Below, piece by piece: positions 8,617 to 52,686 of a DNA stretch of 64,000 nt; position 1 is the stretch's first letter; the number at the start of each line of letters is the position of its first letter. Under the pieces are notes generated by a model. The model was not told the origin of the DNA and did no database searches. It saw only the letters and a program-made list of their open reading frames with translations. Source of the DNA: an uncultured bacterium (GTDB lineage: Bacteria; T1Sed10-126); the NCBI GenBank assembly GCA_964631325.1, contig CAZVWJ010000002.1, forward strand, positions 5,848-69,847. Direction: 5' to 3'. Made by a program: the position numbers and the translations under genes.

Positions 8617-8659
8617 TACAAATCCTCCCAAAAACGTCTCCTCTTTCCTGGCGGGCGAG

Positions 8660-8830
8660 GTCCTGACCTGTGCATAGACAGAGCTTGCTCTGCGCATGGA
8701 CAGGGGTTGTGGCGCGTACTCGTTATTAGAGTGAGGGGGATAAAACAGAAAGGACGTCGTAATTAACTTTATGACGTCATTTCACCCCCACCTTAATCCT
8801 CCCCCATCAAGGGGGAGGAGATTTTAGACC
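8660..8830. repeat. Intergenic structured repeat, copy B (core GCTTGCTCTGCGCATGGACAGGG ... GGCGCGTACTCGTTATTAGAGTGA ... CACCCCCA ... CTCCCCCATCAAGGGGGAG hairpin)
   Basis: Shares a conserved 5' core, middle box and 3' G5/C5 hairpin with the copies at 11210-11360 and 16535-16715. It sits between the ahcY stop and the histidine kinase start. Confidence 0.6.
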
Positions 8831-8849: not shown

Positions 8850-10115
8850 TTAAGTTCCCATCTGCCAGGACTCGAGGTATTCCTTCTGTTTATCCGTTAA
8901 TTCATCTATCTGAACGTCGCGAGCAGCAAGCTTCAGTTCAGCAATCCGCTCGTCGATTTCACGCGGGACAGTGTGAACGTCATGAGCCAGGTTTTCGCCC
9001 TCTGTGGCCAAATATTCCGCGGAAAGTGCCTGATTGGCAAAGGACATGTCCATAACCTCTGCCGGATGGCCTTCTGCTGCGGCCAGGTTAACCAGGCGGC
9101 CTTCAGCAAGGACGTAGACCGAACTTCCATCCTGAAGTTCAAATCTTTCCAGACTCTCTTTGATTTGAGTCCGTTCCACAGCCATCTCATCGAGATCCTC
9201 AAGATCAAGTTCCACGTTAAAATGGCCGGCATTAGCAACAATAGCTCCGTCTTTCATCTGTTTAAAGTGTTCTCCGCGGATTACAGAAATATCACCGGTA
9301 GAAGTTACGAATACATCACCAGTTTTTGCGGCTTCAGACATTGGCTTAACGTCATAACCGCTCATATGAGCTTCCAGGGCCCGCAGGGGATCAACTTCAC
9401 AGATAGTTACATTAGCCCCCATACCGTCGGCCCGCATGGCAATTCCCTGACTGCACCAACCAAAACCGGCTACAACTACGTTTTTGCCCGCCAACAAGAT
9501 ATTAGTCGCCCGCAGAATTCCGTCAATTGTGCTCTGACCGGTTCCATAGCGGTTATCAAACATATGCTTGGTTTTGGCATCGTTAACAGCGATTACCGGA
9601 AACTCCAGCACATCATTCTTCGCCATAGAACGGAGGCGAATGACGCCGGTGGTGGTTTCCTCAGTACTGCCAACCAACTGTTTAGCCAGCTCCGGTTCTT
9701 CCTGCAGAATAGTACTAACAAGATCAGCCCCGTCATCCATTGTTATCTGCGGTTCGTGATCAATTGCAGAATGGATGTGGGAATAGTAGGTCTCCTTATC
9801 TTCACCGTGGATAGCATAAACGGGGATATCGTGATTTTCCACCAGGGCGGCGGCAACATCGTCTTTAGTTGAAAGCGGGTTAGAAGCACAGAGAACAACG
9901 TCGGCCCCTCCAGCTTTCAGAGTAGTTGCCAGGTTAGCAGTTTCCGTAGTCACGTGGAGACAGCAGGACAAATTAAGCCCTTCCAGGGGTTTTTCTTTCT
10001 CAAATCTATTTTTCACCTGGGATAAAACCTGCATACTACGACCGGCCCAGTTTATATTTTTCTCACCCTCACCGGCTAAGGAAGGATCAGCAATATCACA
10101 GTGCACACTACTCAT
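8850..10115 (-). CDS. ahcY: Adenosylhomocysteinase (S-adenosyl-L-homocysteine hydrolase)
   Basis: 421 aa with [38 protein letters not shown] and the NAD-binding [34 protein letters not shown], both diagnostic for SAHH. Confidence 0.9.
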
Positions 10116-10221
10116 AACATTTCACTCCAATGAAAAAATATTTAGCTAACAAACTACCTTAATTATAACCATAAATTATACAAAAAATGTTGTTAAACTA
10201 CAGAATTCAGATTAAAACCTC

Positions 10222-10325
10222 AAAACGTCATTCCGGGCAAGGGAGGGAAACGACCGCGATCCGGAAATCAAAAAAATCAAAAAATGGATTGCCGGGTCAA
10301 GCCCGGCAATGACGTTCGTTTTGTT
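10222..10325. mobile_element. MITE/REP-like palindromic element, copy 1 (GTCATTCCGGG ... ATTGCCGGGTCAAGCCCGGCAAT ... GACG)
   Basis: Imperfect terminal inverted repeats plus an internal 23-nt perfect palindrome. Its reverse complement matches the element at 51430-51573. Confidence 0.5.
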
Positions 10326-10417
10326 CTGGATTACCGGGTTAGGCTCTGGGACGTTATACGTTCCCGGCAATGTCAAAAATATTTTACAGATTTAACTGCT
10401 GATTTACTGGTGAAAGG

Positions 10418-11161
10418 CTAAAGTTCGTTTTGTTGAAGGTATTGATCTGCTTTCTGAAGAGAATCCTTATCACCAATATCAAACCATAGACCTTCAAAAC
10501 GGTGGGCATAAACGCAGTCATTTTCAACCAACCAGGTAACATACCAACCCGGTTCATCGGGGTTACCACCCGATTTAATATAAGCCTCGAGCAAATCAAG
10601 TTTCTTTTTCGGGAACAAATACATACCCATAGCCACCAAGCTTGAGGGCGGCTCCTCGGGTTTTTCAAGAAAATCAGTTACCTCGTCTTGTTCATCAGTT
10701 GCCACAATACCGTATTTAGAAAGCTTACTCTCATCTTCAAAATCTAAAACACCGATCACGTTCTCACCGGTTTTTTTGAAAGTTTTCACCATGTCATTCA
10801 AGCTAAAATCAAATAAATTATCACCTGCTAATACAAGCAAATCATCATCAATTTCAGCTTCCTCCACAACAAATTTAATATCCCCGATTGCCCCCCGTCT
10901 TTTACCATCCTGTGTTGTTCCGTCGTTCAGAACGGTGACCGGCAGATCAGCCCCGGCGGAATCAGCCCAATTGCAAAACTTCTGGTAAAACTTATCGTTA
11001 CTCACCAGGACGATCTCCTCGACTTCAGGGACCTCTTTAATTTTTTCCACGATCAGATCCAGTATTGGTGTTCCGCCCACTTCCAACAAGGGCTTAGGAC
11101 GATCCCTGGTGAGAGGATAAAGCCTCGTCCCATACCCCGCAGCAAGCACAAGTGCTTTCAT
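10418..11161 (-). CDS. Sugar-1-phosphate nucleotidyltransferase (NTP_transferase family)
   Basis: MKALVLAAGYGTRLYPLTRDRPKPLLEVGGTPILD is the canonical G-x-G-T-R-L nucleotidyltransferase N-terminus. 247 aa. Confidence 0.75.
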   Translation of the reverse strand: MKALVLAAGYGTRLYPLTRDRPKPLLEVGGTPILDLIVEKIKEVPEVEEIVLVSNDKFYQKFCNWADSAGADLPVTVLNDGTTQDGKRRGAIGDIKFVVEEAEIDDDLLVLAGDNLFDFSLNDMVKTFKKTGENVIGVLDFEDESKLSKYGIVATDEQDEVTDFLEKPEEPPSSLVAMGMYLFPKKKLDLLEAYIKSGGNPDEPGWYVTWLVENDCVYAHRFEGLWFDIGDKDSLQKADQYLQQNEL

Positions 11162-11209
11162 CGTTTAAACCTCCTGTTTAAAACCTTGAATTCAACGTAA
11201 CTACTCACA

Positions 11210-11360
11210 TATCCTCTCTCCCCTGGTGGGGGAGAGCTTGCCCTGCGCATGGACAGGGCCAGAGAGAGGGGACTATCAACTTCTTAGTCGAAATTGTTGC
11301 GTCAAAAACCTCTTTTCACCCCCATTTTTTTCTCCATTAAGGGGGAAAAGATTAGTGAGT
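11210..11360. repeat. Intergenic structured repeat, copy C
   Basis: CTCTCCCCTGGTGGGGGAGAG hairpin, then GCTTGCCCTGCGCATGGACAGGG core, then CACCCCCA and a G5 tail. Sits between the GT4 gene start and the nucleotidyltransferase stop. Confidence 0.6.
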
Positions 11361-11406
11361 AGTTACAATTTTTAGATAAATAGAAAATCATAATCTCCAC
11401 GTGCTG

Positions 11407-14420: not shown

Positions 14421-15344
14421 TCACCGACCACGAGGATGATAATCCCGGTGAGAATTTCTTACTTCATCTCGTAAATGAACGTAAATATCTGCCGTAGTGC
14501 CGACATCACTGTGACCGAGCATCTTCTGTAAACTTCGCAAATCCGCCCCTCCCGCCAGCATATGAGTTGCAAACGAGTGACGCAGTGTATGAGGAGTGAC
14601 TTCGGTCAGGTTGGCCTGTTGAGCGTATTTTTTAACAATTTGCCAGATCTGCTGGCGAGTTATCTGTGTTCCTTTCCGGGTTAGAAAGAAATACTCGGAG
14701 CCGCCCGACGTCGTCCAGGTATTTCTTATCTCTCGTCCATATCTCTTTAACCACTTAAGAGCTTCACGACCAATTGGGACAATCCTCTGTTTATCTCCCT
14801 TCCCAATCACACTTAGTTCTCCACGCTCCCAATCAACACCGTTTGCTTCCAGTTCCACTGCTTCCGAAACCCGCAGACCAGCTCCGTACATTGCTTCCAG
14901 CAAAGCTCGATCACGAAGACCTGCTGACGAATCACAATCCGGCTCGTCCAATAATGACCGAACTTCTTGCTCACTTAAATAATTAGGGAAATTTTCTCCT
15001 TTTCCGGGCCGATCCATCTTTTCGACTGGATTTCCTGACATACAGTCAGTCGACGTTAAAAATGAAAAAAATTTGTGCAGGGTCGAAAGACGGCGAGAAA
15101 CTGTGCGAGGAGCGTATTCCCCCCGACGACAGTATTCAAGGAAATCTGTAATGACAAACATGTCTACTTCTTCCGGCTGTAACTCCTGTTCGCGAATAAA
15201 TCCAAAAAAATTTTTCAAGTCAGAGCAATATGAACTAACAGTATTTTCCGCCAGCCCTTCATCGACAATTAATCGTTCACGAAATTTTTGTAATAATTCC
15301 TCCCACCTGTCCTCCATCCGTAAAGAGTTATCTAGTTCAGCCAT
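14421..15344 (-). CDS. Tyrosine site-specific recombinase XerC/XerD family
   Basis: N-terminal SAM-like domain and catalytic RHR-Y box (LRVSEAVELE ... HTLRHSFATHMLAGGADLRSLQKMLGHSDVGTTADIYVHL). Confidence 0.85.
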   Translation of the reverse strand: MAELDNSLRMEDRWEELLQKFRERLIVDEGLAENTVSSYCSDLKNFFGFIREQELQPEEVDMFVITDFLEYCRRGEYAPRTVSRRLSTLHKFFSFLTSTDCMSGNPVEKMDRPGKGENFPNYLSEQEVRSLLDEPDCDSSAGLRDRALLEAMYGAGLRVSEAVELEANGVDWERGELSVIGKGDKQRIVPIGREALKWLKRYGREIRNTWTTSGGSEYFFLTRKGTQITRQQIWQIVKKYAQQANLTEVTPHTLRHSFATHMLAGGADLRSLQKMLGHSDVGTTADIYVHLRDEVRNSHRDYHPRGR

Positions 15345-16485: not shown

Positions 16486-16534
16486 AGATTGTCTCCTTAA
16501 TTTTTTGGTAAGATTCAAAACTTCAAAATATATC

Positions 16535-16715
16535 TCCTCTCCCCCGGTGGGAGAGGGCTTGCCCTGCACATGGACAGGGCTTATGGCGCATACGCGTTAT
16601 TAAGGTGAACGGGGGAATCCTACCTGAAGCAGGAGGAAAAGGCTCTGAAAACCTTTTTTTACCCCCATCTGTGTCTTCCCCCATCAGGGGGAAGAGTTTG
16701 TAGAGGGAACTCACC
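16535..16715. repeat. Intergenic structured repeat, copy D
   Basis: CTCTCCCCCGGTGGGAGAGGG hairpin, then GCTTGCCCTGCACATGGACAGGG, GGCGCATACGCGTTATTAAGGTGA, ACCCCCA and the CTTCCCCCATCAGGGGGAAG hairpin. Lies between the pcm stop and the DUF368 start. Confidence 0.6.
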
Positions 16716-16757
16716 CCATCGAGAGGGAAAAATTATTTTGAAGTTCTGGGTAAAATT

Positions 16758-37804: not shown

Positions 37805-38183
37805 TGATTAATCCCCTCTTATCATAAAGAATTACCCGGCGTAATCAGCCACATCCTTCTTTACAGTATACAAAAACAATAAATCGGCTATAATCATTCC
37901 CGGGAGGTCAGATTCACCGGGCTATCTACTATCTTTGTTTTACCTAAAATTCCTCACTTCATATTTGAATTCCTTAGAAGATGTGAGAAAAATCACCTAT
38001 ACTTTTGACTAATAAGATGGTATAAATATATAGGAATATCCCGTAAAGGAAACACTTAATATTGGCTGTGTAGAGCCCCTTAATGAAACCGGAGTTTGAG
38101 ACAGTCCTTAGAAGCAGTGTTAAAAAAATCAGATATCATTTTAACTGAGAGGAACGGAAATTTGTTTATATTTCCGGGTCAAA

Positions 38184-42139: not shown

Positions 42140-45100
42140 ATGACTGCTAAAAAACAAAATATCTGGTTCTGTCTGACCGCAGTATTTCTGCTGTTCTGGC
42201 TCGTTTTACCGGCCCGGTCTACAGATACTTTACCGGAAAAATATGTCTCTGCCGGCACCGATCAATTGAAAGAAAAACAGAAATACCAGCTTGCCGGTAT
42301 TTCTTTTGGCCCGGTGGAGGCGGTTGAAGAACAGGTCGAGGAGCTGGACAACAAAGCTAATGATTACTGGATAGCCCACTGGCAGGATAACAACTGTACC
42401 GGTGACGCCAGTGATCCAGAATGTGCCGGGGTCGTAAACTTCCCCCAGAAAGTGCTCGATTACTGGAAAAACCATCCACACGATAGACCGGATAGCTGGG
42501 CCGTATCAGTAAACTCCCCTTCAGCCAGCACCACTTCCAGTTCCCCGGACACGGTCGCTGAAACACACTCTAGCCCACTCTGGCGGGCTAAAACCAGTGG
42601 CGTTCTTACTTCCGCTCCGGCCGTTGATGAAGAAGGAACCGTTTACTTTGGCAGTTATGACAAAAAAGTTTATGCCCTGTATCCGGACGGGTCAGAAAAA
42701 TGGACTTTCACTACCGGTGGAGCTATCCACGCCGCCCCGGCTCTGGGAGCCGGCGACACGTTGTATGTGGCCAGTGAAGACAAATATCTCTATGCCCTGG
42801 ATACGGAAGCCGGGAACGTGTTGTGGAAATACAAAACCGCGGGGCGCCTGCACTCTTCGCCGGCCATCAGTTCCAATGGCATAATTTATGTCGGCTGTAC
42901 GGACAACAAACTGTATGCAATCCGTCCCGACAGCGACGGAGACGATGAGGGAGAGCTGGCCTGGACTTATACAACCGGTGGTCGGATAACCTCTTCCCCC
43001 ACTCTAAGCGCCGACTCTACAGTTTACGTCGGCTCCTGGGACAAAAATCTGTATGCGGTCCGTCCCGACAATAGCAATGACGGAGAAGGTGAATTAAATT
43101 GGAAAGTTTCCACCGGCGGCGAAATTAAATCATCCCCGGCTCTCGGAGCAGACGGAACTATTTATTTTGGCAGTCATGATAAACATCTTTATGCCCTCAA
43201 TTCTGACGGGACTGAACAATGGAGTTCCAACCTCGAAGGGGCAGTCTGGTCCTCACCGGTTATCGGAAGTGATTCCACTGTTTACGTCGGTTCCTGGAAC
43301 GGCAAGCTATATGCTCTCAACCACAAAGACGGCTCAACTGAGTGGACGTTTACCACCGGCGAAAGAATTGTTGCCTCTCCGCTGGTCGGAAGCAAACGGA
43401 TTTATGTCGGTTCTCACGACAATACTCTCTACGCACTTAATCCGGACACGCCCGGTGGGCCGGGAAGCTGGAAGTTCTCAACCGGGGAAGCAATTTTTGC
43501 CGGCACCAACCTCCGGGACACTTCCCTGTATGTGGTTTCAGGTGATAATTACCTTTACGCCCTTGAAGCCGACACTTCCGGCCTCGCCCAATCCAGTTGG
43601 CCAAAATTCGGCGGCAACCACAAAAATACCGGCCAGACGCCCGAACAACTACCGGAAGAATACAGCGGTCCGACCTGGTATGTGAACGACGATACCACAG
43701 CCGGCGACGTCTATACTTCAGCCCCGGGTTCAAATGAAAATCCCGGCAGTCCGGACGCCCCCTTCCTTACTATTTCCCGGGCTCTGGAAGCTGCCACCAC
43801 CGGCGATACTATAATGATCGATGCCGGCACCTACGGGGAAACGGTAGCCATTGACACCAACTCCCTGGCCCTGGTCGGTGCTGACTCCAGTCCGGCCGGG
43901 ACTGTCATAGATGCCGGCGACAGTTCCGCCGCCAGTAAATTGATTGTTCTTCGTTCGGATACCGTCACCAACCTTCAAATCAAAAATTTAAGGGTGGCCA
44001 ACGGATACTGGGGATTAATCCTTTACAACACAGATAACTCACTCGTAGAAAACGTTATGGCCACTTCTAACAAATCAGTGGGAATCGGTTTAGTAAACGG
44101 CTCTGAGTTTAACACCCTCAGCGAGGTCAGCACTTCCAATAACGATTCTGGTGGGCTGACGATAGATTCTGCAAACAACTTAGTTAAAAACAGTAATTTT
44201 TCAAAAAATGGGGATGACGGTTTAAGTATTGCCCTGTCGGCTACCGCCAACATAGTTTATAACAACCTGGTGAGCAATAACGATCAAGCCGGAATTAACG
44301 TCGAGGGAAGCGATAATGAAATTCGGCAAAACCAAATTATTAATAATAATCTCAGCACTACCAGTAATGATGGAGGGCTGGAATTAGGTGACGCAGAGAA
44401 CGGAGAAATCGCCGAAAACAACCTTGTGGTGCGGAATTTAATCAAGGACAACTATAATGGCATCGAGTTGAGAGGAACTAACCAAAATTTAATCCACAGC
44501 AACGAACTGGTAAATAATGCATATCATCTTTATCTTGAAGACACCGCCACTACCTTTAATGATACCTTTACCAAGAACAACCTGACCTCAGCCGGAGATT
44601 CACTGGTAATGGCTGTAGGCTTTTCAGGAACAGAGGCCAAACTGCTCAGAAACTGGTGGGGGATGACAGATGAAATCGCTATTCAGTCAAAAATCCAGGG
44701 ACCTCTGGCGGATGCAGTTGTATTTCAACCTTACCGATTAAACAAAGTGGACACAGGAACCGGAGCCGATACACTTGCTCCGGCAACACCGGTGGCTGAC
44801 ACCGTTGCTGGCAGCCACAGTGGAATAGCCCTGAGCTGGAACCAGGTTAACACTGACGAAAACAACAACCCGCTGACAGATTTTGCCGAATACAGGATCT
44901 ATAAAACTACTTCCGGGACTGAAACCGACTGGAAAAATAATGCACTCATGGTCAGCTCTATCAGCAGTGTTTCCGACACTGATTACGTAGATACTTCCGT
45001 CACCCCCGGCGAAACTTATTACTATCGAATTACTGCTGTAGACAGCGCACCGGCAGAAAACGAATCATTTTTTAGCAGTACCTTAATAGCCCAGGCCAAA

Positions 45101-48100
45101 CCCTGGTCCGGTCCCACCTGGTATGTAAACGATAACTATACGGGGGACGAAATTTACACCTCCACCGCCGGTTCAGACACTAACACCGGCGGCCCCTCGG
45201 ATCCCTTCCGAACCATTTCAGAAGCAATGAGTCATGTCGCCGCCGAAGATACTATCCTGGTCGACGCCGGCACTTACGGTGAAACTGTCGCCTTTATAAC
45301 TGACGGCCTCACTCTGGCCGGAGCCGGGTCAACCGCTACTAGCTTCGATTTCGGGGACAGCTCGACTGTCACTGCAGCCGTTGGTATTTATTCTGACACC
45401 CACAGCGGTCTGTTAATAAAAAATCTGAGCATTCGCAATTATATGATCGGTCTGTCTTTCAGCGGTGTTAGCGCTTCCCGGGTAGAAAACGTAACTGTTG
45501 AAAATTGTGGTGAAAGTGGGATGTACCTCTGGAATTCCGGCGGGGTTGTATTTAACCAGGTTGTTTCCAGGAATAATATTTTTGACGGACTTACCGTAGA
45601 TGGTTCAAAAAATATCAATGTTATTTCCAGTCGATTTACGGGCAACGACTCCAACGGACTTGTGTTTATTCAGTCGGACACAGCACTTGTTAAAGAAAAT
45701 CATCTCACCGAAAATAGCCAGGCCGGCCTTTTATTGGACAATACCTCAACTTCCCTGGCCAGCAATAACCTGATCACTGGCAATAACTCCGGTATGGAGT
45801 TAATTGGCGGATTCTTCAACGAAGTAATTCAGAACGATATCCGCAACAATACTAACTACCAGGTTTACAACACTACTTTTGACAACCTGTTTCGGAAAAA
45901 CAACCTCGTAGCCTCAACAACTAATCCGGACAGCGTAGTCAAGGATACTTCCTCGGGAATTGATTTTATCTACAACTGGTGGGGAACAACCGCCCACACA
46001 GCAATTGATACAAAGCTAACTGGTTTCGGGAGCTATGAACCCTACCGGCTTGGCCAAGTCGACACAGCCCCCGGAGCTGACACTATGGCATTCGCCTCAC
46101 CCATTGTAGACACAGCAGTGGTACTCGGTTCCGATACCGTAGAAGTTCGCTGGCAACAGATAACTACAAATGAAGAGGGCAGCGCGATGAGCGCTGATTT
46201 CAACAGTTATGTTATTTATCGTTCCACCTCCGATACCGTCACCGACTGGAAGCTGTATGAAATAGCCAGCCTTGCCGGTTCAATGAGCGACACTGATTAT
46301 ATTGATACCGATGTAACTCCCGGCCAAACTTACTACTATCGAATTACCGCCCTGGATGATCATACCCTGGACGGCGGCGACGGCACGGCTAAATTTGACA
46401 ATGAATCCTATTTCAGCAGTACAATCGCCGCCACCCCAACCCATTCCGGCCCCACCTGGTATGTGAACGATAACGATACCGCCGGAGACGTCTACACTTC
46501 AGCAGTTGGTTCCGAGACCCACACCGGCGGCCCCTCGGATCCCTTTCGAACCATTTCAGAAGCAATGAACCACGTCTCCGCCGGAGATACTATCCTGGTC
46601 GACGCCGGCACCTACGGCGAGACGGTGGCTATCGACACCAACTCCCTGGCCCTGGTCGGGGCTGATTCTCAAAGCACGATAATTGATTCACCCGGAGCTA
46701 ATGTCAATCTATACGCTTCAAACGCAGATAATATCTCCATTCGAAAATTGGGAGTCCAGAATAGTTCAGTTGGAATTGAACTTGATTCGATAACAAACTC
46801 CCTGGTTGAAAACGTTCACGTGGACACTGCAACAAATAATTCCTTGTATCTCTATCTTTCTGATTCTAATACAATTCGCTCTTCCTATTTTGGGCAGAGC
46901 GATAATGACCAGGTTATGCTCTATACTTCCAGCAATAACTTGATAGAACACAACATGGCTGAGAACGGTTGGGGACGAAGCTATTACCTGCAGGCTTCCT
47001 CTAATGACAATAAAATAATTAACAATCTGGCCCGGGCCGGACAATCCGGAATCGTTGTGCGCGGTTCCGATAATGTTCTGGTAGCGGATAATACAATCAG
47101 GGATATGTCGGGTTTCGGTATTAGCGCCCAGTTCTATCCGGTTAATTTAAGGGTCTTGAGAAATACCCTCTATAACGTGGGCAGTGTCAACCTGGAGTTA
47201 GAAGCTGACGGTTGTTACGTCGCTCAGAACACGGTGGACTCTCCCGGTAGCTGGGCTGTACAAACAAACGGTGGAGGAACAATTACAAAAAACAATATAT
47301 ACACAGGAACAATACTACCGGACAGCGGTGCTCTTAACTCAGGAGACTCTGTCGTTGACCTAACTCGCAACTGGTGGAATACCACTGACGAAAATCTGGT
47401 AGCCCGAAAAATTTACAATTCCGGCGCCGGAACCACAATATACAGCCCTTATCGGCTCGGCTTAGTAGATACCGGCGTCGGTGCCGACACTGTTGCTCCC
47501 GCCACTCCCGTTGCCGACACCGCCTTTGTGGTCGGCAGTGACACAATTGAAGTCCGCTGGCAGGAGGTCACCGCAGACGAAGACGGCAGCAGCCTCGATT
47601 TTAACCGTTACAATGTCCACCGTTCTAAATACGACACGGAAACCGATTGGTTAAGCAACACTTCTTCCAAAGGGTCGATAATGAGCGCCGGGGATACCAG
47701 TATTACAGACGATAACAATCTCATTCCCGGCCAGACCTACTATTACCGGGTCCTGGCCAAGGACGCTTCCTCGCCGGCAAACTCCTCTTTCTTCAGCGAT
47801 TCAATGAGTGTAACGCTACCTGCCTGGAACGGTCCTACCTGGTACGTAAATGATAACGACACCACCGGCGATGTTCATACCTCCGCCGTCGGTTCTGACT
47901 CCAACACCGGTGGACCAGACGATCCCTTCCGGACAATTTCCTATGCTCTTTCCCAGGTTTCAGCCGGGGACACCGTGCTCGTGGATGCCGGCACCTACGG
48001 AGCAACCGGCGAAACTATTACTCTAAGTGTTAACGATCTTGCCCTTGTCGGTGCTGACTCTGCAACCACGATACTTGATTTTGGAGATACTTCACCAGGA

Positions 48101-49201
48101 GCGGGGGCCGGTTTGTATGCATTAAACAGGCAGAATTTACAGATCCGCGATCTGGCAGTTAAAAATTCTTATCGCAATATCTACTGGGATGGAGTTACTT
48201 ATTCCAATATCGACAACGTCCGGGTTACAAATAGCGGTTACGTTGGTGTAACCCTGCTGGGCTCCGATACTAACGTAATTAAAAACAGTGACCTTTCAAA
48301 CAATTACGGCTACGGGATTTCATTCAATTCTGCCAACGATAATCAACTTAGAAATTCCAGCTTAACTTCAAATTATAATGATATTGAAATTAATTCCAGT
48401 TCTGACAATACAATAAGCGAAAATCACCTGACCGGGTCAGGGGCTGATGCTATCATTCTCTCTGTAGCCAGCCAAAACAAAATTTCAAATAATGTCATTG
48501 AAAATAGCCAGGGTGATGGAATTTATATTGCTAATTCTCAATTCAATACAATCGTCCAGAATGAAATCAAGAATAACAACGATTACCAAATTTATCAGAC
48601 CGGGACCACCGGAGAGATAAATCTCGCCACCAAAAATAACATCGCTGCTTCGGCCACCAACCCCGACTCGCTGGCTTACAACGACGTTACTTCTGATACA
48701 ACCAATTTTACTTACAATTACTGGAACAGCACCGACTCCGCCGTCATCAGCAGTGGGTTAGCCGGCGCAGGAAATACTCTCCAGGTCCCCTATCTATTGC
48801 GTAAAGTAGATACCGGCGTCGGCGCCGACACTAATCCGCCCGCAATACCGGCTAATGTCGTTGCTGACACCGTAGCCGGAGGAACAATCACCATAAGCTG
48901 GGACGAGGTTACTACTAACCAGGACGGCAGCACCATTGGTGACTTTGAAAAATACACGGTTTACCGGCTCAGAGCAGATACAGTTACCGACATAAAGAAT
49001 AACTACAATGATGTAAGTTATACCTCCGGCGGTGCCACTGATACTTCCGTTACCAACTCCCCCGGTGGACTTGCTTCGGGGGATACTTACTATTATGTCA
49101 TCACTGCTATTGACAATCCTCTCACGGACGGTGGAGATGGGACCTCCGACTTTATAAACGAGTCCTATTTCAGCACTATGATTAGTGTAGTCGCCCCGTA
49201 A
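42140..49201 (+). CDS. Giant (2353 aa) secreted surface protein: PQQ-type beta-propeller followed by four tandem [right-handed parallel beta-helix + fibronectin-III] modules
   Basis: Signal peptide, then 8 or more PQQ-like blades (YALxxDGSEKWTF.TGG.I.SSPA). Four modules follow, each opening GPTWYVNDNDT.GDVYTSA.GS...GGP.DPFRTIS.A......GDTILVDAGTYGETVA and containing NxxxxN beta-helix rungs and an FN3 segment (Y.IYR......W......DTDY.DT.V.PG.TYYYRI.A.D). Confidence 0.8.
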   Translation: MTAKKQNIWFCLTAVFLLFWLVLPARSTDTLPEKYVSAGTDQLKEKQKYQLAGISFGPVEAVEEQVEELDNKANDYWIAHWQDNNCTGDASDPECAGVVNFPQKVLDYWKNHPHDRPDSWAVSVNSPSASTTSSSPDTVAETHSSPLWRAKTSGVLTSAPAVDEEGTVYFGSYDKKVYALYPDGSEKWTFTTGGAIHAAPALGAGDTLYVASEDKYLYALDTEAGNVLWKYKTAGRLHSSPAISSNGIIYVGCTDNKLYAIRPDSDGDDEGELAWTYTTGGRITSSPTLSADSTVYVGSWDKNLYAVRPDNSNDGEGELNWKVSTGGEIKSSPALGADGTIYFGSHDKHLYALNSDGTEQWSSNLEGAVWSSPVIGSDSTVYVGSWNGKLYALNHKDGSTEWTFTTGERIVASPLVGSKRIYVGSHDNTLYALNPDTPGGPGSWKFSTGEAIFAGTNLRDTSLYVVSGDNYLYALEADTSGLAQSSWPKFGGNHKNTGQTPEQLPEEYSGPTWYVNDDTTAGDVYTSAPGSNENPGSPDAPFLTISRALEAATTGDTIMIDAGTYGETVAIDTNSLALVGADSSPAGTVIDAGDSSAASKLIVLRSDTVTNLQIKNLRVANGYWGLILYNTDNSLVENVMATSNKSVGIGLVNGSEFNTLSEVSTSNNDSGGLTIDSANNLVKNSNFSKNGDDGLSIALSATANIVYNNLVSNNDQAGINVEGSDNEIRQNQIINNNLSTTSNDGGLELGDAENGEIAENNLVVRNLIKDNYNGIELRGTNQNLIHSNELVNNAYHLYLEDTATTFNDTFTKNNLTSAGDSLVMAVGFSGTEAKLLRNWWGMTDEIAIQSKIQGPLADAVVFQPYRLNKVDTGTGADTLAPATPVADTVAGSHSGIALSWNQVNTDENNNPLTDFAEYRIYKTTSGTETDWKNNALMVSSISSVSDTDYVDTSVTPGETYYYRITAVDSAPAENESFFSSTLIAQAKPWSGPTWYVNDNYTGDEIYTSTAGSDTNTGGPSDPFRTISEAMSHVAAEDTILVDAGTYGETVAFITDGLTLAGAGSTATSFDFGDSSTVTAAVGIYSDTHSGLLIKNLSIRNYMIGLSFSGVSASRVENVTVENCGESGMYLWNSGGVVFNQVVSRNNIFDGLTVDGSKNINVISSRFTGNDSNGLVFIQSDTALVKENHLTENSQAGLLLDNTSTSLASNNLITGNNSGMELIGGFFNEVIQNDIRNNTNYQVYNTTFDNLFRKNNLVASTTNPDSVVKDTSSGIDFIYNWWGTTAHTAIDTKLTGFGSYEPYRLGQVDTAPGADTMAFASPIVDTAVVLGSDTVEVRWQQITTNEEGSAMSADFNSYVIYRSTSDTVTDWKLYEIASLAGSMSDTDYIDTDVTPGQTYYYRITALDDHTLDGGDGTAKFDNESYFSSTIAATPTHSGPTWYVNDNDTAGDVYTSAVGSETHTGGPSDPFRTISEAMNHVSAGDTILVDAGTYGETVAIDTNSLALVGADSQSTIIDSPGANVNLYASNADNISIRKLGVQNSSVGIELDSITNSLVENVHVDTATNNSLYLYLSDSNTIRSSYFGQSDNDQVMLYTSSNNLIEHNMAENGWGRSYYLQASSNDNKIINNLARAGQSGIVVRGSDNVLVADNTIRDMSGFGISAQFYPVNLRVLRNTLYNVGSVNLELEADGCYVAQNTVDSPGSWAVQTNGGGTITKNNIYTGTILPDSGALNSGDSVVDLTRNWWNTTDENLVARKIYNSGAGTTIYSPYRLGLVDTGVGADTVAPATPVADTAFVVGSDTIEVRWQEVTADEDGSSLDFNRYNVHRSKYDTETDWLSNTSSKGSIMSAGDTSITDDNNLIPGQTYYYRVLAKDASSPANSSFFSDSMSVTLPAWNGPTWYVNDNDTTGDVHTSAVGSDSNTGGPDDPFRTISYALSQVSAGDTVLVDAGTYGATGETITLSVNDLALVGADSATTILDFGDTSPGAGAGLYALNRQNLQIRDLAVKNSYRNIYWDGVTYSNIDNVRVTNSGYVGVTLLGSDTNVIKNSDLSNNYGYGISFNSANDNQLRNSSLTSNYNDIEINSSSDNTISENHLTGSGADAIILSVASQNKISNNVIENSQGDGIYIANSQFNTIVQNEIKNNNDYQIYQTGTTGEINLATKNNIAASATNPDSLAYNDVTSDTTNFTYNYWNSTDSAVISSGLAGAGNTLQVPYLLRKVDTGVGADTNPPAIPANVVADTVAGGTITISWDEVTTNQDGSTIGDFEKYTVYRLRADTVTDIKNNYNDVSYTSGGATDTSVTNSPGGLASGDTYYYVITAIDNPLTDGGDGTSDFINESYFSTMISVVAP
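43669..49198 (+). repeat. Four tandem intragenic repeats of about 1.35 kb (module starts near 43669, 45111, 46449 and 47832)
   Basis: Nucleotide-level identity between modules, for example 46449-46680 against 43669-43900 and a near-identical 45-nt run at 45182 and 46520. This indicates recent internal duplication. Confidence 0.7.
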
Positions 49202-49488: not shown

Positions 49489-50310
49489 ATGAACATTTTC
49501 AGTGACTTGCGTAAATTTCTCTTTATTGTATTGACTTTTCTTGCCTTTACAGCCCTTCCCGCCAGAGCACAATCTCCGGGCCATTTTACTCTCGGCTACG
49601 GAATCTCCAACTTTGAATACACAGAACCCAAGATGACGGAATCCGGCACACTCCAGCACCTGCAGGCAAAATACGAAAAATTTAAAGAACATCATTATAT
49701 TGGTATGGATGGCAACCTCTGGGCCGGTAACCTGAAATACGATGGAGAAACACTCGAAGAAAATCCTCGTCCTGTTACCACGGAAACTGATGATTTTATC
49801 CTTACAACGAATTTACGGGTGGGCACACCACAGCCTCGGAAAAGCGGAGTTCTTATTCCTTACCTGGGATTAGGATACAGGTACTGGAACAATGTAATCA
49901 CTGAAAGCAATATAACCGCTCGCACTGAACGAACCACCCAGTATTTCTACTCACCACTTGGTTTTCTACTGGCAAGCAATTCTGCGAGATTCGGCAAAAC
50001 AATTCTTAAAATGGAATATCTTTACTTCTGGGCGGGAAAAGTAACCACTCAATTTGGTAACGCACCAGAGTTAAATAATGACCAAAACCAGGGAAAAGGC
50101 GGAAGGATTGCGCTAACATTTTTACTCGGAGGTCAACAGAAAATTAGTCACAGCCTGAGTATATTTTTCAACTACTGGGACATTGAGCCTTCGGAATCCG
50201 ATTCTATCCTGGTGGATATCGATAACGACTCCACAAAGGAAAACGTGGCTTTTTATGAACCGGCCAACAGCACGGCAATTATCGGAGCTCAGTTAAATAT
50301 TACGTTTTAG
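49489..50310 (+). CDS. Outer-membrane beta-barrel protein (porin-like, 273 aa)
   Basis: Signal peptide (FIVLTFLAFTALPARAQ), amphipathic beta-strand periodicity and a C-terminal ...QLNITF ending in Phe. Confidence 0.6.
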   Translation: MNIFSDLRKFLFIVLTFLAFTALPARAQSPGHFTLGYGISNFEYTEPKMTESGTLQHLQAKYEKFKEHHYIGMDGNLWAGNLKYDGETLEENPRPVTTETDDFILTTNLRVGTPQPRKSGVLIPYLGLGYRYWNNVITESNITARTERTTQYFYSPLGFLLASNSARFGKTILKMEYLYFWAGKVTTQFGNAPELNNDQNQGKGGRIALTFLLGGQQKISHSLSIFFNYWDIEPSESDSILVDIDNDSTKENVAFYEPANSTAIIGAQLNITF

Positions 50311-51284
50311 ATATCCGCCGGATCAGCCGGTTCAACCTGGGAAGGCTTAATATTACTTAAAACCCGCTGAAGTCCCCGGACGTGTGCCCCCAATTGCCGG
50401 CGGGCCTTGAGGTTTGAGTGGGGATCATCACTGGCTTGGCTGTGCCGGACTTTAAGCCGGTCATATTCACTTCTGATTTTACTTAAGCGATCCCGGGGAA
50501 TTCCTTCCTTAATTATACTCTTGAGATGAGTATACAATTTCTTTGCCGCGCCGGCAGCAGCTTTTAAATCCGAGTAATCAACCGCATAGTCATAATCATG
50601 GTATTCGCTTTCATGCGGGGATTTAAACTTAATCTCGACCAGGCCCGCAGTTAGTATTTCCCGGGCCGTAGCCTGTAGTTCCTCGGCCATTTTTGGCGGT
50701 CGGACCTGCAAATCCTTACTCCTGGGAGTGGCCAGCAGGTTTTCTAATTTTTCTCCTGACATTTTCATCCCTTTGGAAAGACCGGCCACATCCGGGTTCA
50801 AAGTTTTGCATATATTTCTATGGCCCCGCCACTTTTCTTCTTCCAGAAAATGTAAAAGAAGCAGAGCTGCATCATAAAGTAAGTTTTGAGTGCTTTTCAG
50901 ACAGGCTAAATCTTCCGTTGTGACTCGTACCCGCCGGGACAAAACCTCAAGGATCTTCCGACGGAATTTGTGACTTTTTTTCAGCAGGTTATCGAACTGT
51001 TTTTCTCCAAGTCGCAAGCAAACTGTATCTATTCTGGCTTTGACCGCGGCTGACCGGTCAGATTCCTCTCCCAGCAGGGCCATTTCTCCGACCAGTTCTC
51101 CCGGCCCAAGGGAAGTTATAAAACTAACTTCATCATCTTCCTTGAGCACTTCCACAAGTCCCTCCTGGATAATATAAAAACTGTCCCCGTGGTCCCCTTC
51201 TTTAAATAAATATTCGTCGGGTTCATAGTTTTGCCGATACTCTTCAAAACCTTCAAGAAGTGAATTTTTCACTTGTCTCACCAA
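50307..51284 (-). CDS. Cyclic-nucleotide-binding domain protein with uncharacterised C-terminal domain
   Basis: N-terminal cNMP-binding fold (YLFKEGDHGDSFYIIQEGLVEV...GPGELVGEMALL...RSAAVKA). C-terminal roughly 200 aa have no recognised motif. Confidence 0.65.
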   Translation of the reverse strand: MVRQVKNSLLEGFEEYRQNYEPDEYLFKEGDHGDSFYIIQEGLVEVLKEDDEVSFITSLGPGELVGEMALLGEESDRSAAVKARIDTVCLRLGEKQFDNLLKKSHKFRRKILEVLSRRVRVTTEDLACLKSTQNLLYDAALLLLHFLEEEKWRGHRNICKTLNPDVAGLSKGMKMSGEKLENLLATPRSKDLQVRPPKMAEELQATAREILTAGLVEIKFKSPHESEYHDYDYAVDYSDLKAAAGAAKKLYTHLKSIIKEGIPRDRLSKIRSEYDRLKVRHSQASDDPHSNLKARRQLGAHVRGLQRVLSNIKPSQVEPADPADI

Positions 51285-51429
51285 CCTGAAAATCTAAATA
51301 TAAAATTACTCAGTCCCACTCATATATCGTCACGGTAAATGTTCTAACCTGATTACCCTCAAGTCAGCCTATATCGATAAAACAGTATATTTATATCATT
51401 TTATTCTGAATAAGTATAGGTGATTTTTA

Positions 51430-51573
51430 TCACATCAAAAACTTTCTAACGCACTGTCATTGCCGGGCTTGACCCGGCAATCCATAATTCAAAGATCGAA
51501 AGATCGATGGATTCCGGGTTTCCGGCGCTTCGCGCCTTCACCCGGAATGACGTTTTAGTGTCATTAGAAAGTT
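51430..51573. mobile_element. MITE/REP-like palindromic element, copy 2 (inverted relative to copy 1)
   Basis: AACTTTCTAAcgcacTGTCATTGCCGGGCTTGACCCGGCAATCC ... CCCGGAATGACGTTTTAGTGTCATTAGAAAGTT. The 29-nt and 16-nt termini are identical to the reverse complement of 10222-10325. It has extended inverted repeats. Confidence 0.5.
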
Positions 51574-51624
51574 CTGTATCACATCCAGGAAAAGTAAAAG
51601 GGAAAAGAAGAAAACAAAAGGAAG

Positions 51625-52686
51625 CTACCGTTCAAACCGATAGTTATTAACAGCCCAGCTAAATTCCCGGACTATCACCCAGACACTGGCGGCAACCGGA
51701 ATTCCGAGGATCATCCCAACTATACCGGCAAGCTGTCCCCCCCCAATAACCACGAGGATAACAATAAGTGGGTGGAGATTCATACTCTGGGAAAAAGAAT
51801 AGGGTTTAACAAAGATGTTATCAATCACCTGGACAACAACCATTACTCCTCCAACTGTAAGAATCGCCATTACATTTTCAGTTTCCATCAACTTGACAAT
51901 AATCGCGGGTATTGCTCCGGCCGCCGGGCCAATATAGGGGACTACGTTCGCTATTCCAACAAAAATTCCAATGGTGGTAGCATAAGGTACAGAAAATATT
52001 TTCAAACCAATTACACTTAACAGAGCTATAATAGCCGCTTCTATAGCCAGCCCGCGCATATACTGCCCAATCTTACGGTCAACTTTAAAATAAATGTTAT
52101 AGACCATTTCAAAAAACATATTGGGAACAGCACCAAGAAAAAACTTTTCCATTTCCCTTTGATCCCGAACAAGGAAAAAAGCTATGAACGGAATCACCAC
52201 CATATACTGAAGGACCAGGTATAAATTAATTAAGAATCCGGTAAGCTGACTAAGAATCCACTGGTAAGCCCGATCGAGGGGCGTCTGCAGAGTCCCCCGG
52301 GGCAAAAATCCAAAGGCACCTTCCAGGTCAGCAAGAAAATCATAAATCAGCTTTCTCAGGTTCTGTTCACTGAGTATTTCTTTCAGACTGACCGCCTGGC
52401 GCCAGAACAAAGGACTATAAAACACAATTAAAACGGTAATGACTAAAATGAGCAGTAAAAAAATAATTGTCGTAGACCAACTGCGAGAAAAACCCTGCAT
52501 TTCCAAATATTCCACGGCCGGCCTGATCAGGTAGGAAAAAAGGAAAGCTAGAAACGTCATTATTACGAGATGATACAACTGAGGAATAAGGTAAAAAGCC
52601 ACCCCGATGACAAAGAGTGGAAAAAGATAATATATAGTGTTAATTACACTCCGGGGAGTTATATACTTATTCTCCGTCTTTGCCAT
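51625..52686 (-). CDS. AI-2E family transporter (PerM/YhhT/TqsA-like)
   Basis: 353 aa, 8 TM helices, conserved GIANVVPYIGPAAGAIPAIIV segment of the AI-2E family. Confidence 0.8.
   Translation of the reverse strand: MAKTENKYITPRSVINTIYYLFPLFVIGVAFYLIPQLYHLVIMTFLAFLFSYLIRPAVEYLEMQGFSRSWSTTIIFLLLILVITVLIVFYSPLFWRQAVSLKEILSEQNLRKLIYDFLADLEGAFGFLPRGTLQTPLDRAYQWILSQLTGFLINLYLVLQYMVVIPFIAFFLVRDQREMEKFFLGAVPNMFFEMVYNIYFKVDRKIGQYMRGLAIEAAIIALLSVIGLKIFSVPYATTIGIFVGIANVVPYIGPAAGAIPAIIVKLMETENVMAILTVGGVMVVVQVIDNIFVKPYSFSQSMNLHPLIVILVVIGGGQLAGIVGMILGIPVAASVWVIVREFSWAVNNYRFER

Follow-up and report, generated by a model that had tools for sequence, protein, structure and literature searches.

Two intergenic sequences of the 64-kb window (the whole stretch of DNA analysed here) are, in our reading and with good confidence, copies of a ~115-140-nt non-coding composite element, in which a head-to-head dimer of CGTC-tagged REP hairpins is enclosed by terminal inverted repeats (TIRs) and has MITE-type mobility. 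The repeat kind itself is known; the MITE-type package around a CGTC-REP/SRM dimer is described neither in PMC3733652 nor in PMC11893778. The window is otherwise ordinary chromosome with a mean GC of ~45-46%, carrying rpsA, cmk, pheA, scpAB, a fumarase gene and sigma-54 regulators (Pfam scans). Among homologues of its proteins that carry a taxon name, those at ~50% identity belong to Candidatus Omnitrophica and Nitrospirae.

Direct reading of both regions confirmed the presence of the two sequences that the preliminary description had reported, and its claims of a repeat in opposite orientations and of a shared palindrome were borne out. The repeat search aligned 10284-10313 with 51456-51485 as 30 nt of 100% complementarity and, at the other end, 10222-10266 with 51512-51556 at 76%, and the palindrome ATTGCCGGG-N5-CCCGGCAAT is found at exactly two places in the 64 kb, against an expectation of 0.03. 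A whole-element profile HMM found these two as the only full copies in the window (E ~1e-29), and a covariance model (CM R1), built on 46 distinct hairpin units, all from other genomes, returned as canonical units the same two A units only (53 bits, E ~1e-13). On the opposite strand unit A scored just 14.6 bits, which indicates that the units are oriented by tag and tail and are not simple palindromes. The element limits, earlier drawn at 10222-10325 and 51430-51573, are corrected to 10213-10327 and 51437-51576.

Each copy consists of two opposed hairpin units, A and B, set head-to-head with their CGTC/TGTC tags outward, the whole layout being TIR, unit A, spacer (T-rich in copy 1), unit B and TIR. 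Unit A reads C/TGTC-ATTGCCGGG-CTTGA-CCCGGCAAT-CCA, with a 27-nt core identical between copies 1 and 2, and unit B reads CGTC-ATTCCGGG-(22-nt loop)-CCCGGAAT-CCA, intact in copy 2 and bulged with a CAA tail in copy 1. What had been taken for a variable core of ~50 nt is the spacer plus this second hairpin unit with its enlarged loop, not free sequence. The designation as a REP/MITE-like palindromic element survives in that the element is dispersed and intergenic, and its supposed anatomy of TIRs plus variable core gives way to one of two oriented CGTC-tagged units.

Copy 2 (51437-51576, plus strand; nhmmer E=3.2e-29) is well preserved. It opens with a left TIR and linker, AAAAACTTTCTAAC-GCAC (51437-51454, plus), matching the consensus (C)AGAACCTTCCAAC-GATTT, followed by unit A (TGTC ATTGCCGGG CTTGA CCCGGCAAT CCA; 51455-51484, plus; CM R1 53.4 bits, E=3.2e-13). 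Unit B, delimited by reading and folds (51508-51552, minus), runs CGTC ATTCCGGG, a 22-nt loop with an inner GGCGC/GCGCC hairpin, then CCCGGAAT CCA. The right TIR, TTAGAAAGTTCTG (51564-51576, plus), base-pairs with its left counterpart when the copy is folded and is separated from the GACG tag by an 11-nt insert. Abutting the element ends on both sides is a 9/9 direct repeat, TATCACATC (51428-51436 and 51577-51585, both plus), that is, a target-site duplication, the left arm of which doubles as half of a CRP-like site belonging to the downstream promoter. As single-stranded DNA the copy folds at -35.5/-37.4 kcal/mol (z -6.4/-7.1) into a closed three-way structure on either strand, and the RNA fold (z -7.2) is a long closed structure with UUUUU after the outer stem. 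The outer repeat already noted at this copy, AACTTTCTAA/TTAGAAAGTT, stands as a repeat and is identified by the family alignment as the family's terminal inverted repeat. We rejected the idea that this outer palindrome was a pre-existing terminator, because the same ends are found on all family copies.

Copy 1 (10213-10327, minus) is decayed, with an ssDNA fold of z -2.6/-3.1, and was delimited with the nhmmer family profile (E=1.5e-29) and by alignment to metagenome copies, to which it is 81-83% identical across ~100 nt. Its unit A (CGTC ATTGCCGGG CTTGA CCCGGCAAT CCA; 10285-10314, minus; CM R1 53.8 bits, E=2.4e-13) is followed on the transcribed minus strand by the T-run CCATTTTTTG and was flagged as terminator-like. 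The degenerate unit B (10226-10271, plus), placed by alignment to the metagenome unit B, has CGTC ATTCCGGG, a 22-nt loop, a bulged CCGGAAAT and the CAA tail. In the family alignment, the outer inverted repeat is TAAAACCTCAAAA on the B side (10213-10225, plus) vs the consensus CAAAACCTTCCAA, and a decayed AGAACAAAACGAA on the A side (10315-10327, minus); in the relative L150, homology to the window restarts directly beyond the B-side end, at 'aatctg'. A third unit, missed by the preliminary description, abuts copy 1 at 10327-10375 (minus; read and fold): a degenerate hairpin with the tag TGAC, ATTGCCGGG, a 24-nt loop and CCCGGTAAT CCA. The same order of single unit then dimer recurs in the metagenome contigs L137, L139 and L142 (84-88% over 59 nt). 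A 54-aa ORF over copy 1 is spurious.

To judge from the hairpins themselves, both window sequences are members of the known CGTC-REP/SRM kind, and the core of each is a head-to-head dimer of units in which an unpaired C/TGTC tag precedes a stem of 8-9 bp with AT at its start, closed by a loop and followed by a CCA tail. An exact-pattern scan for TCATTGCCGGG-N(3-33)-CCCGGCAATCC over species-representative genomes gave at least 120 loci, all with the exact 27-nt core of unit A; among the matches listed, nearly all are alphaproteobacterial with 61-71% GC (among them Bradyrhizobium, Rhodopseudomonas, Pseudolabrys, Inquilinus, Devosia and Labrys), and single ones come from a few MAGs that bear the labels Treponema, Fibrobacterota, Flavobacteriaceae and Chloroflexia. 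At the listed loci unit A normally has an inverted partner after it, with compensatory changes distinguishing the partner's stem. Of 204 units, 123 carry the tag CGTC and 71 TGTC, 158 have CTTGA as their loop and 190 end in a CCA tail. The stems of the 46 distinct units are paired in 99.5% of cells, with double changes in 5 of the 9 pairs, a covariation score reached by none of 500 shuffles. In the window, the tag is TGTC in unit A of copy 2 and CGTC in unit A of copy 1 and in both B units; unit A has a 9-bp stem, and the B and extra units have the right stems and tails, save for the CAA tail of the copy-1 B unit, with loops of 22-24 nt. Over the 64 kb covered, the source genome holds two dimers and one unit; the dispersal is seen in related or similar low-GC lineages, where copies are abundant. 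In L003, L033, L024 and L072 we also observed 20-33-nt loop insertions located just before TGA; loops appear to be sites of insertion or expansion.

Copy 1 lies between the gene for an NTP-transferase (10418-11161) and that for adenosylhomocysteinase, ahcY (8850-10115), both on the minus strand. Copy 2 lies between the genes for an AI-2E transporter (51625-52686, minus) and a cNMP-binding protein, also minus; it had been placed upstream of the transporter, and in fact it is downstream (3') of it and upstream of the cNMP-binding protein gene. For comparison, contigs of relatives with the same gene order were obtained via exact-protein look-ups. The NTP-transferase-ahcY spacer measures 302 nt in the window vs 122 nt, with no unit, in an 83%-identical relative, where similarity to the window restarts right past the element end. 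It measures 38 nt, again with no unit, in one 72%-identical relative, and 288 nt in another, where a lone B-type unit faces the opposite way and a neighbouring spacer contains head-to-head dimers. The AI-2E-cNMP spacer is 352 nt in the window vs 65 nt, with no unit, in a 76%-identical relative; that spacer is too diverged for an empty site to be read from it, and the statement is one of element absence and length difference. Occupancy thus varies between orthologous spacers, as expected for mobile repeats.

Several other observations concern the window. The start of the cNMP-binding gene (50307-51284) called mechanically, TTG 51284, is probably wrong, alignment with L147 and L148 pointing to GTG 51272. 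A 51-nt inverted repeat (37980-38030 vs 51386-51436, 84% complementary) carries in each arm a CRP/FNR-like site (TGTGA-N6-TCAC) and then a promoter-like TTGAC...TATAAAT; the arms point inward to a 13.5-kb segment, one toward a 1120-aa/2353-aa operon and the other toward the cNMP-binding gene. The relative L149, at 61% identity, has sulfotransferase, fumarase and malic enzyme genes directly after its AI-2E gene, which indicates that the 13.5-kb segment is absent there. The 2353-aa ORF (42140-49201) contains an internal repeat of ~1.3-1.4 kb in four copies (63-78% identity), and close to its start there are five repeat units of 44 nt that are beta-propeller-like. Additionally, a second intergenic repeat family of ~150-200 nt occurs at 8634-8826, 11197-11366 and 16516-16748, with a part at 1150-1190; it bears motifs such as CTCTCCCCTGGTGGGGGAGAG and TCCCCCATCAAGGGGGAGGAG, fills spacers beside the same genes and has no Rfam match. 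The metagenome contig L143 carries it too (88% identity across 74 nt), as does the relative L151, in which it adjoins a CGTC unit. Beside its fragment, a perfect 44-nt palindrome (TAATACTCTAATACTTGAAAAA / TTTTTCAAGTATTAGAGTATTA) occupies intergenic positions 1202-1245.

Both copies are situated 3' of an upstream stop codon and before the promoter of the next gene, between same-strand genes, and this invites the thought that they are kept mainly as host regulatory signals, that is, as terminators, 3'-end stabilisers or insulators between same-strand genes, which is compatible with a mobile origin. The terminator-like unit A of copy 1 with its T-run on the transcribed strand, the closed RNA fold of copy 2 ending in UUUUU (z -7.2), and the published location of REPs mostly downstream of ORFs (PMC3733652) all agree with such a role. 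However, the two copies are oppositely oriented relative to transcription, close relatives manage without units in spacers of 38-122 nt, the family consensus spacer contains no T-run, and Ssn, the nuclease discussed below, acts on ssDNA and not on RNA (PMC11893778). We regard regulation as a rather unlikely main reason for their retention. A regulatory side effect is plausible: under the MITE reading, the copies are probably tolerated between same-strand genes, where they may add a terminator-like hairpin and a T-run.

The case for MITE-type insertion comes from the element ends. A metagenome scan for the A-B dimer type gave 24 loci, with close copies carried, often at contig ends, by ~45-50% GC contigs from sample Ga0207421 and by one soda-lake sediment contig. 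In their alignment the conserved element reaches past the tags to ~13-bp inverted ends, (C)AGAACCTTCCAAC ... GTTGGAAGGTTTTG, beyond which the flanks are unrelated; these TIRs are present in L127, L134, L136, L143 and L145 and in both window copies. Target duplications are AACAGGAG (8 nt) at L127, GTTAATAA (8 nt) at L134, TGATTTTAT (9 nt) when the left flank of L130 is joined to the right flank of L135, TA(C/T)GGAGGA (8/9) for L143-left with L132-right, and an 8-9-mer with one indel at L136. In the flank-pairing matrix every copy has a unique partner with an exact repeat of 6-9 nt (8-9 nt allowing one mismatch or indel), whereas all wrong left-right pairings share at most 4 nt. The check for target-site duplications that had been proposed thus came out positive for copy 2 (9/9) and five further metagenome loci and negative for copy 1, where none is recognisable and the best match is 3-5 nt. 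With shared TIRs and 8-9-bp target duplications, the composite behaves as a true MITE. In the low-GC lineage, the dimer sits within ~13-bp TIRs, with insertion duplicating 8-9 bp of target, and such packaging argues for movement of the whole composite as a MITE by a transposase acting in trans and making staggered 8-9-bp cuts. As a separate observation, comparison with L130, L132, L135 and L143 shows that the soda-lake contig L145 has its left and right flanks from two different insertion sites; it is the result either of chimeric assembly across the repeat or of recombination between two element copies.

As for the enzyme, IS200/IS605 elements leave no target duplication and IS630 elements duplicate TA; duplications of 8-9 bp fit neither, and the proposal that one of these families supplies the cognate enzyme is unsupported. 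No transposase was found in the window among 36 of the larger ORFs, scanned with Pfam, no Y1_Tnp domain among the window ORFs scanned, and no full-length IS with the same TIRs in the window or the loci examined. TIR-like 12-mers in L135 and L145, considered as traces of a parent IS, coincide with or adjoin ordinary genes, namely an unannotated ORF and those for an APH-like kinase and a radical-SAM enzyme. A XerC/D-like recombinase (14421-15344) was also rejected as the mobilising enzyme, for it is syntenic in the relative L151 and hence housekeeping.

Another explanation is that these are plain REPIN-like CGTC dimers, inserting with no target duplication and spread by a single-strand hairpin enzyme (Ssn or HUH/RAYT-like), the outer palindrome being merely their preferred insertion target, for instance a terminator stem. 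Indeed, alphaproteobacterial head-to-head dimers come without TIRs or duplications: around 81 of them, flanking repeats did not go beyond the shuffled control and TIRs were absent, and such bare dimers would seem to be spread or maintained in some way other than MITE-type insertion. Furthermore, CGTC-1 dimers of H. neapolitanus lie inside 41-bp palindromes that were read as targets (PMC3733652), the NTS-ssnA-NTS architecture (PMC11893778) resembles a REPtron, and on L136 (~1742-1797) the stem-loop of unit A has another CGTC unit nested in it. A mere target, however, does not agree with one and the same TIR sequence accompanying the dimer at loci with unrelated flanks, with 8-9-nt direct repeats outside the TIRs, or with the absence of empty, dimer-less TIR palindromes (AACCTTCCAAC...GTTGGAAGGTT) from the loci examined, and for the window copies we hold this explanation to be distinctly improbable.

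The remaining alternatives fare worse than the MITE reading by far. Two copies of a structured non-coding RNA gene (sRNA or riboswitch) would suit the strong predicted RNA structure of copy 2, but neither copy matches any Rfam family at gathering or permissive thresholds, the copies are oppositely oriented relative to transcription, and conservation tracks DNA-strand-specific tag and tail features, all of which makes such a gene very hard to credit. A resemblance by chance, or a segmental duplication limited to the region, to which the mere two full copies in the window might point, has next to no probability, given the 0.03 occurrences expected by chance, the flanks that do not align outside the elements, the inverted placement 41 kb apart (flanks and inversion together arguing against a segmental duplication), unit A in at least 120 loci of other genomes, and near-identical composites at no fewer than five distinct metagenome loci of the low-GC lineage, so that the element is, as first proposed, no local duplication.

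The enzyme family known to be tied to CGTC hairpins is the GIY-YIG Ssn nuclease (PMC11893778). Ssn proteins (Chenal 2025) are small GIY-YIG enzymes (cd10448) and site-specific single-strand DNA nucleases; they bind and cut, as single-stranded DNA, NTS/SRM hairpins beginning with CGTCAT, the C after the palindrome being critical for binding and the three bases before it for cleavage, and they are inactive on dsDNA, on RNA and on the reverse strand (PMC11893778). The association of ssn genes with flanking hairpin units is already published there, the mechanism of repeat spread is not given, and PMC3733652 is not cited; by their features, CGTC REPs and SRM/NTS motifs are the same hairpins in two literatures. 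In our loci, ~95-aa GIY-YIG genes (PF01541) are found inside head-to-head pairs of A-type units in L110, L062, L020 and L041, and the unit upstream of the ssn-type gene is exactly the window's unit A in L110 and L062. Among plasmid and chromid records, 7 of 8 sampled ssn homologues are bracketed by the host's own CGTC unit type (Neorhizobium, Shinella, Rhizobium, Novosphingobium, Azospirillum, Sinorhizobium with a CCTC tag, and Neisseria). As a side observation, the Azospirillum lipoferum plasmid AZO_p3 (L160) and an S. meliloti record labelled pSymB (L156) carry ssn-type genes with flanking hairpin dimers between sufB/sufC and between hflX/mazG, resembling selfish insertions into conserved gene pairs.

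No ssn homologue was detected in the 64-kb window, either by a six-frame scan for the GIY-YIG motif or by tblastn with seven Ssn proteins, and no ssn gene in the low-GC loci examined. The window units may nevertheless be read, by homology, as putative strand-specific recognition hairpins of a ~95-aa Ssn nuclease, if the genome has one; the enzyme would bind the folded single strand and cut just 5' of the tag. The published pattern HGTCWYN(0-2)YYVSBRHN(0-5)WNVSBRGN(0-2)RNCYNB has no match in the window. Unit A fails it at one stem position, and related 9/5 units pass; as published it seems too restrictive to admit the stems ATTGCCGGG and ATGCGCGGG, and the unit type most common in rhizobia escapes it.

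The multiplication of CGTC-tagged REPs has posed a question since 2013. Clean TIRs and 8-9-bp duplications indicate that, in at least one lineage, ordinary transposition of the cut-and-staggered-join kind is what moves such dimers. It is conceivable, and we offer it tentatively, that in an uncultured low-GC lineage an Ssn-recognition hairpin dimer was captured between transposon ends and is now spreading as a MITE with 8-9-bp duplications. If true, this would give CGTC/SRM repeats a second way of disseminating, driven by a transposase, and would imply horizontal transfer of the Ssn/SRM system across phyla, a transfer that unit A, being the modal alphaproteobacterial unit, would mark; if the lineage lacks ssn, SRMs would be propagating independently of their nuclease. 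The element is of modest interest, useful mainly as a lead on the spread of CGTC/SRM repeats. In practical terms, both sites should be annotated as repeat elements, not as genes or riboswitches, and copies break short-read assemblies at exactly their positions. Among the Logan contigs of the source organism, L001 corresponds to window 10289-11226 and L146 ends in copy 2 unit B; the breaks fall within unit A, the second repeat family and unit B, as expected of multi-copy repeats.

Compared with known systems, there is a close likeness to the CGTC-tagged REPs. According to PMC3733652, these have an unpaired CGTC, often TGTC (variant CCTC), stems that open with AT and span 8-9 bp, 4-5-nt loops with exceptions allowed for larger ones, and CCA tails; they form mostly head-to-head dimers with tags outside and spacers of 20-100 nt, lie between unidirectional or convergent ORFs and mostly downstream of ORFs, and had no associated transposase found in that 2013 survey. 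Unit A shares the tag, AT-starting stem, loop size and CCA tail of the type with a 9-bp stem and 5-nt loop (CGTC-3/4, PMC3733652) and is identical to units at Bradyrhizobium and Rhodopseudomonas loci, and the window copies are likewise head-to-head heterodimers with spacers of that kind between minus-strand genes; trimers, too, have the shared form of a singleton beside a dimer. Unlike these REPs, however, the window copies belong to a host of ~45% GC that is not alphaproteobacterial, have partner units with 22-24-nt loops, and are surrounded, as a dimer, by 13-bp TIRs and 8-9-bp target duplications, which that paper does not describe. The Ssn motifs of PMC11893778 show the same hairpin architecture (NTS being CGTCATTCCCGCG..GCGGGAATCC and NTSvar a 9/5 unit), with orientation likewise given by the tag at the 5' end and the C that follows the palindrome. 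They differ in that unit A fails the published pattern and that no ssn gene was found in the window; a role in natural transformation is known for Neisseria alone.

With MITEs such as the Correia elements of Neisseria, the RPEs of Rickettsia and the cyanobacterial Nezha, the composite shares a length below 150 nt, a non-coding nature, TIRs, target duplication, multiple copies, intergenic location and strong folding. It departs from usual MITEs in that its interior is not a deleted IS but a dimer whose units belong to a REP family widespread in its own right, with no parent IS known, and Correia elements duplicate TA vs 8-9 bp here. The REPIN/RAYT system of GTAG REPs is alike in its inverted doublets forming long hairpins and in a single-copy enzyme gene flanked by its own repeats, but it differs in the tag (GTAG vs CGTC here), in the enzyme (HUH Y1 transposase vs GIY-YIG) and in that REPINs leave no target duplication.
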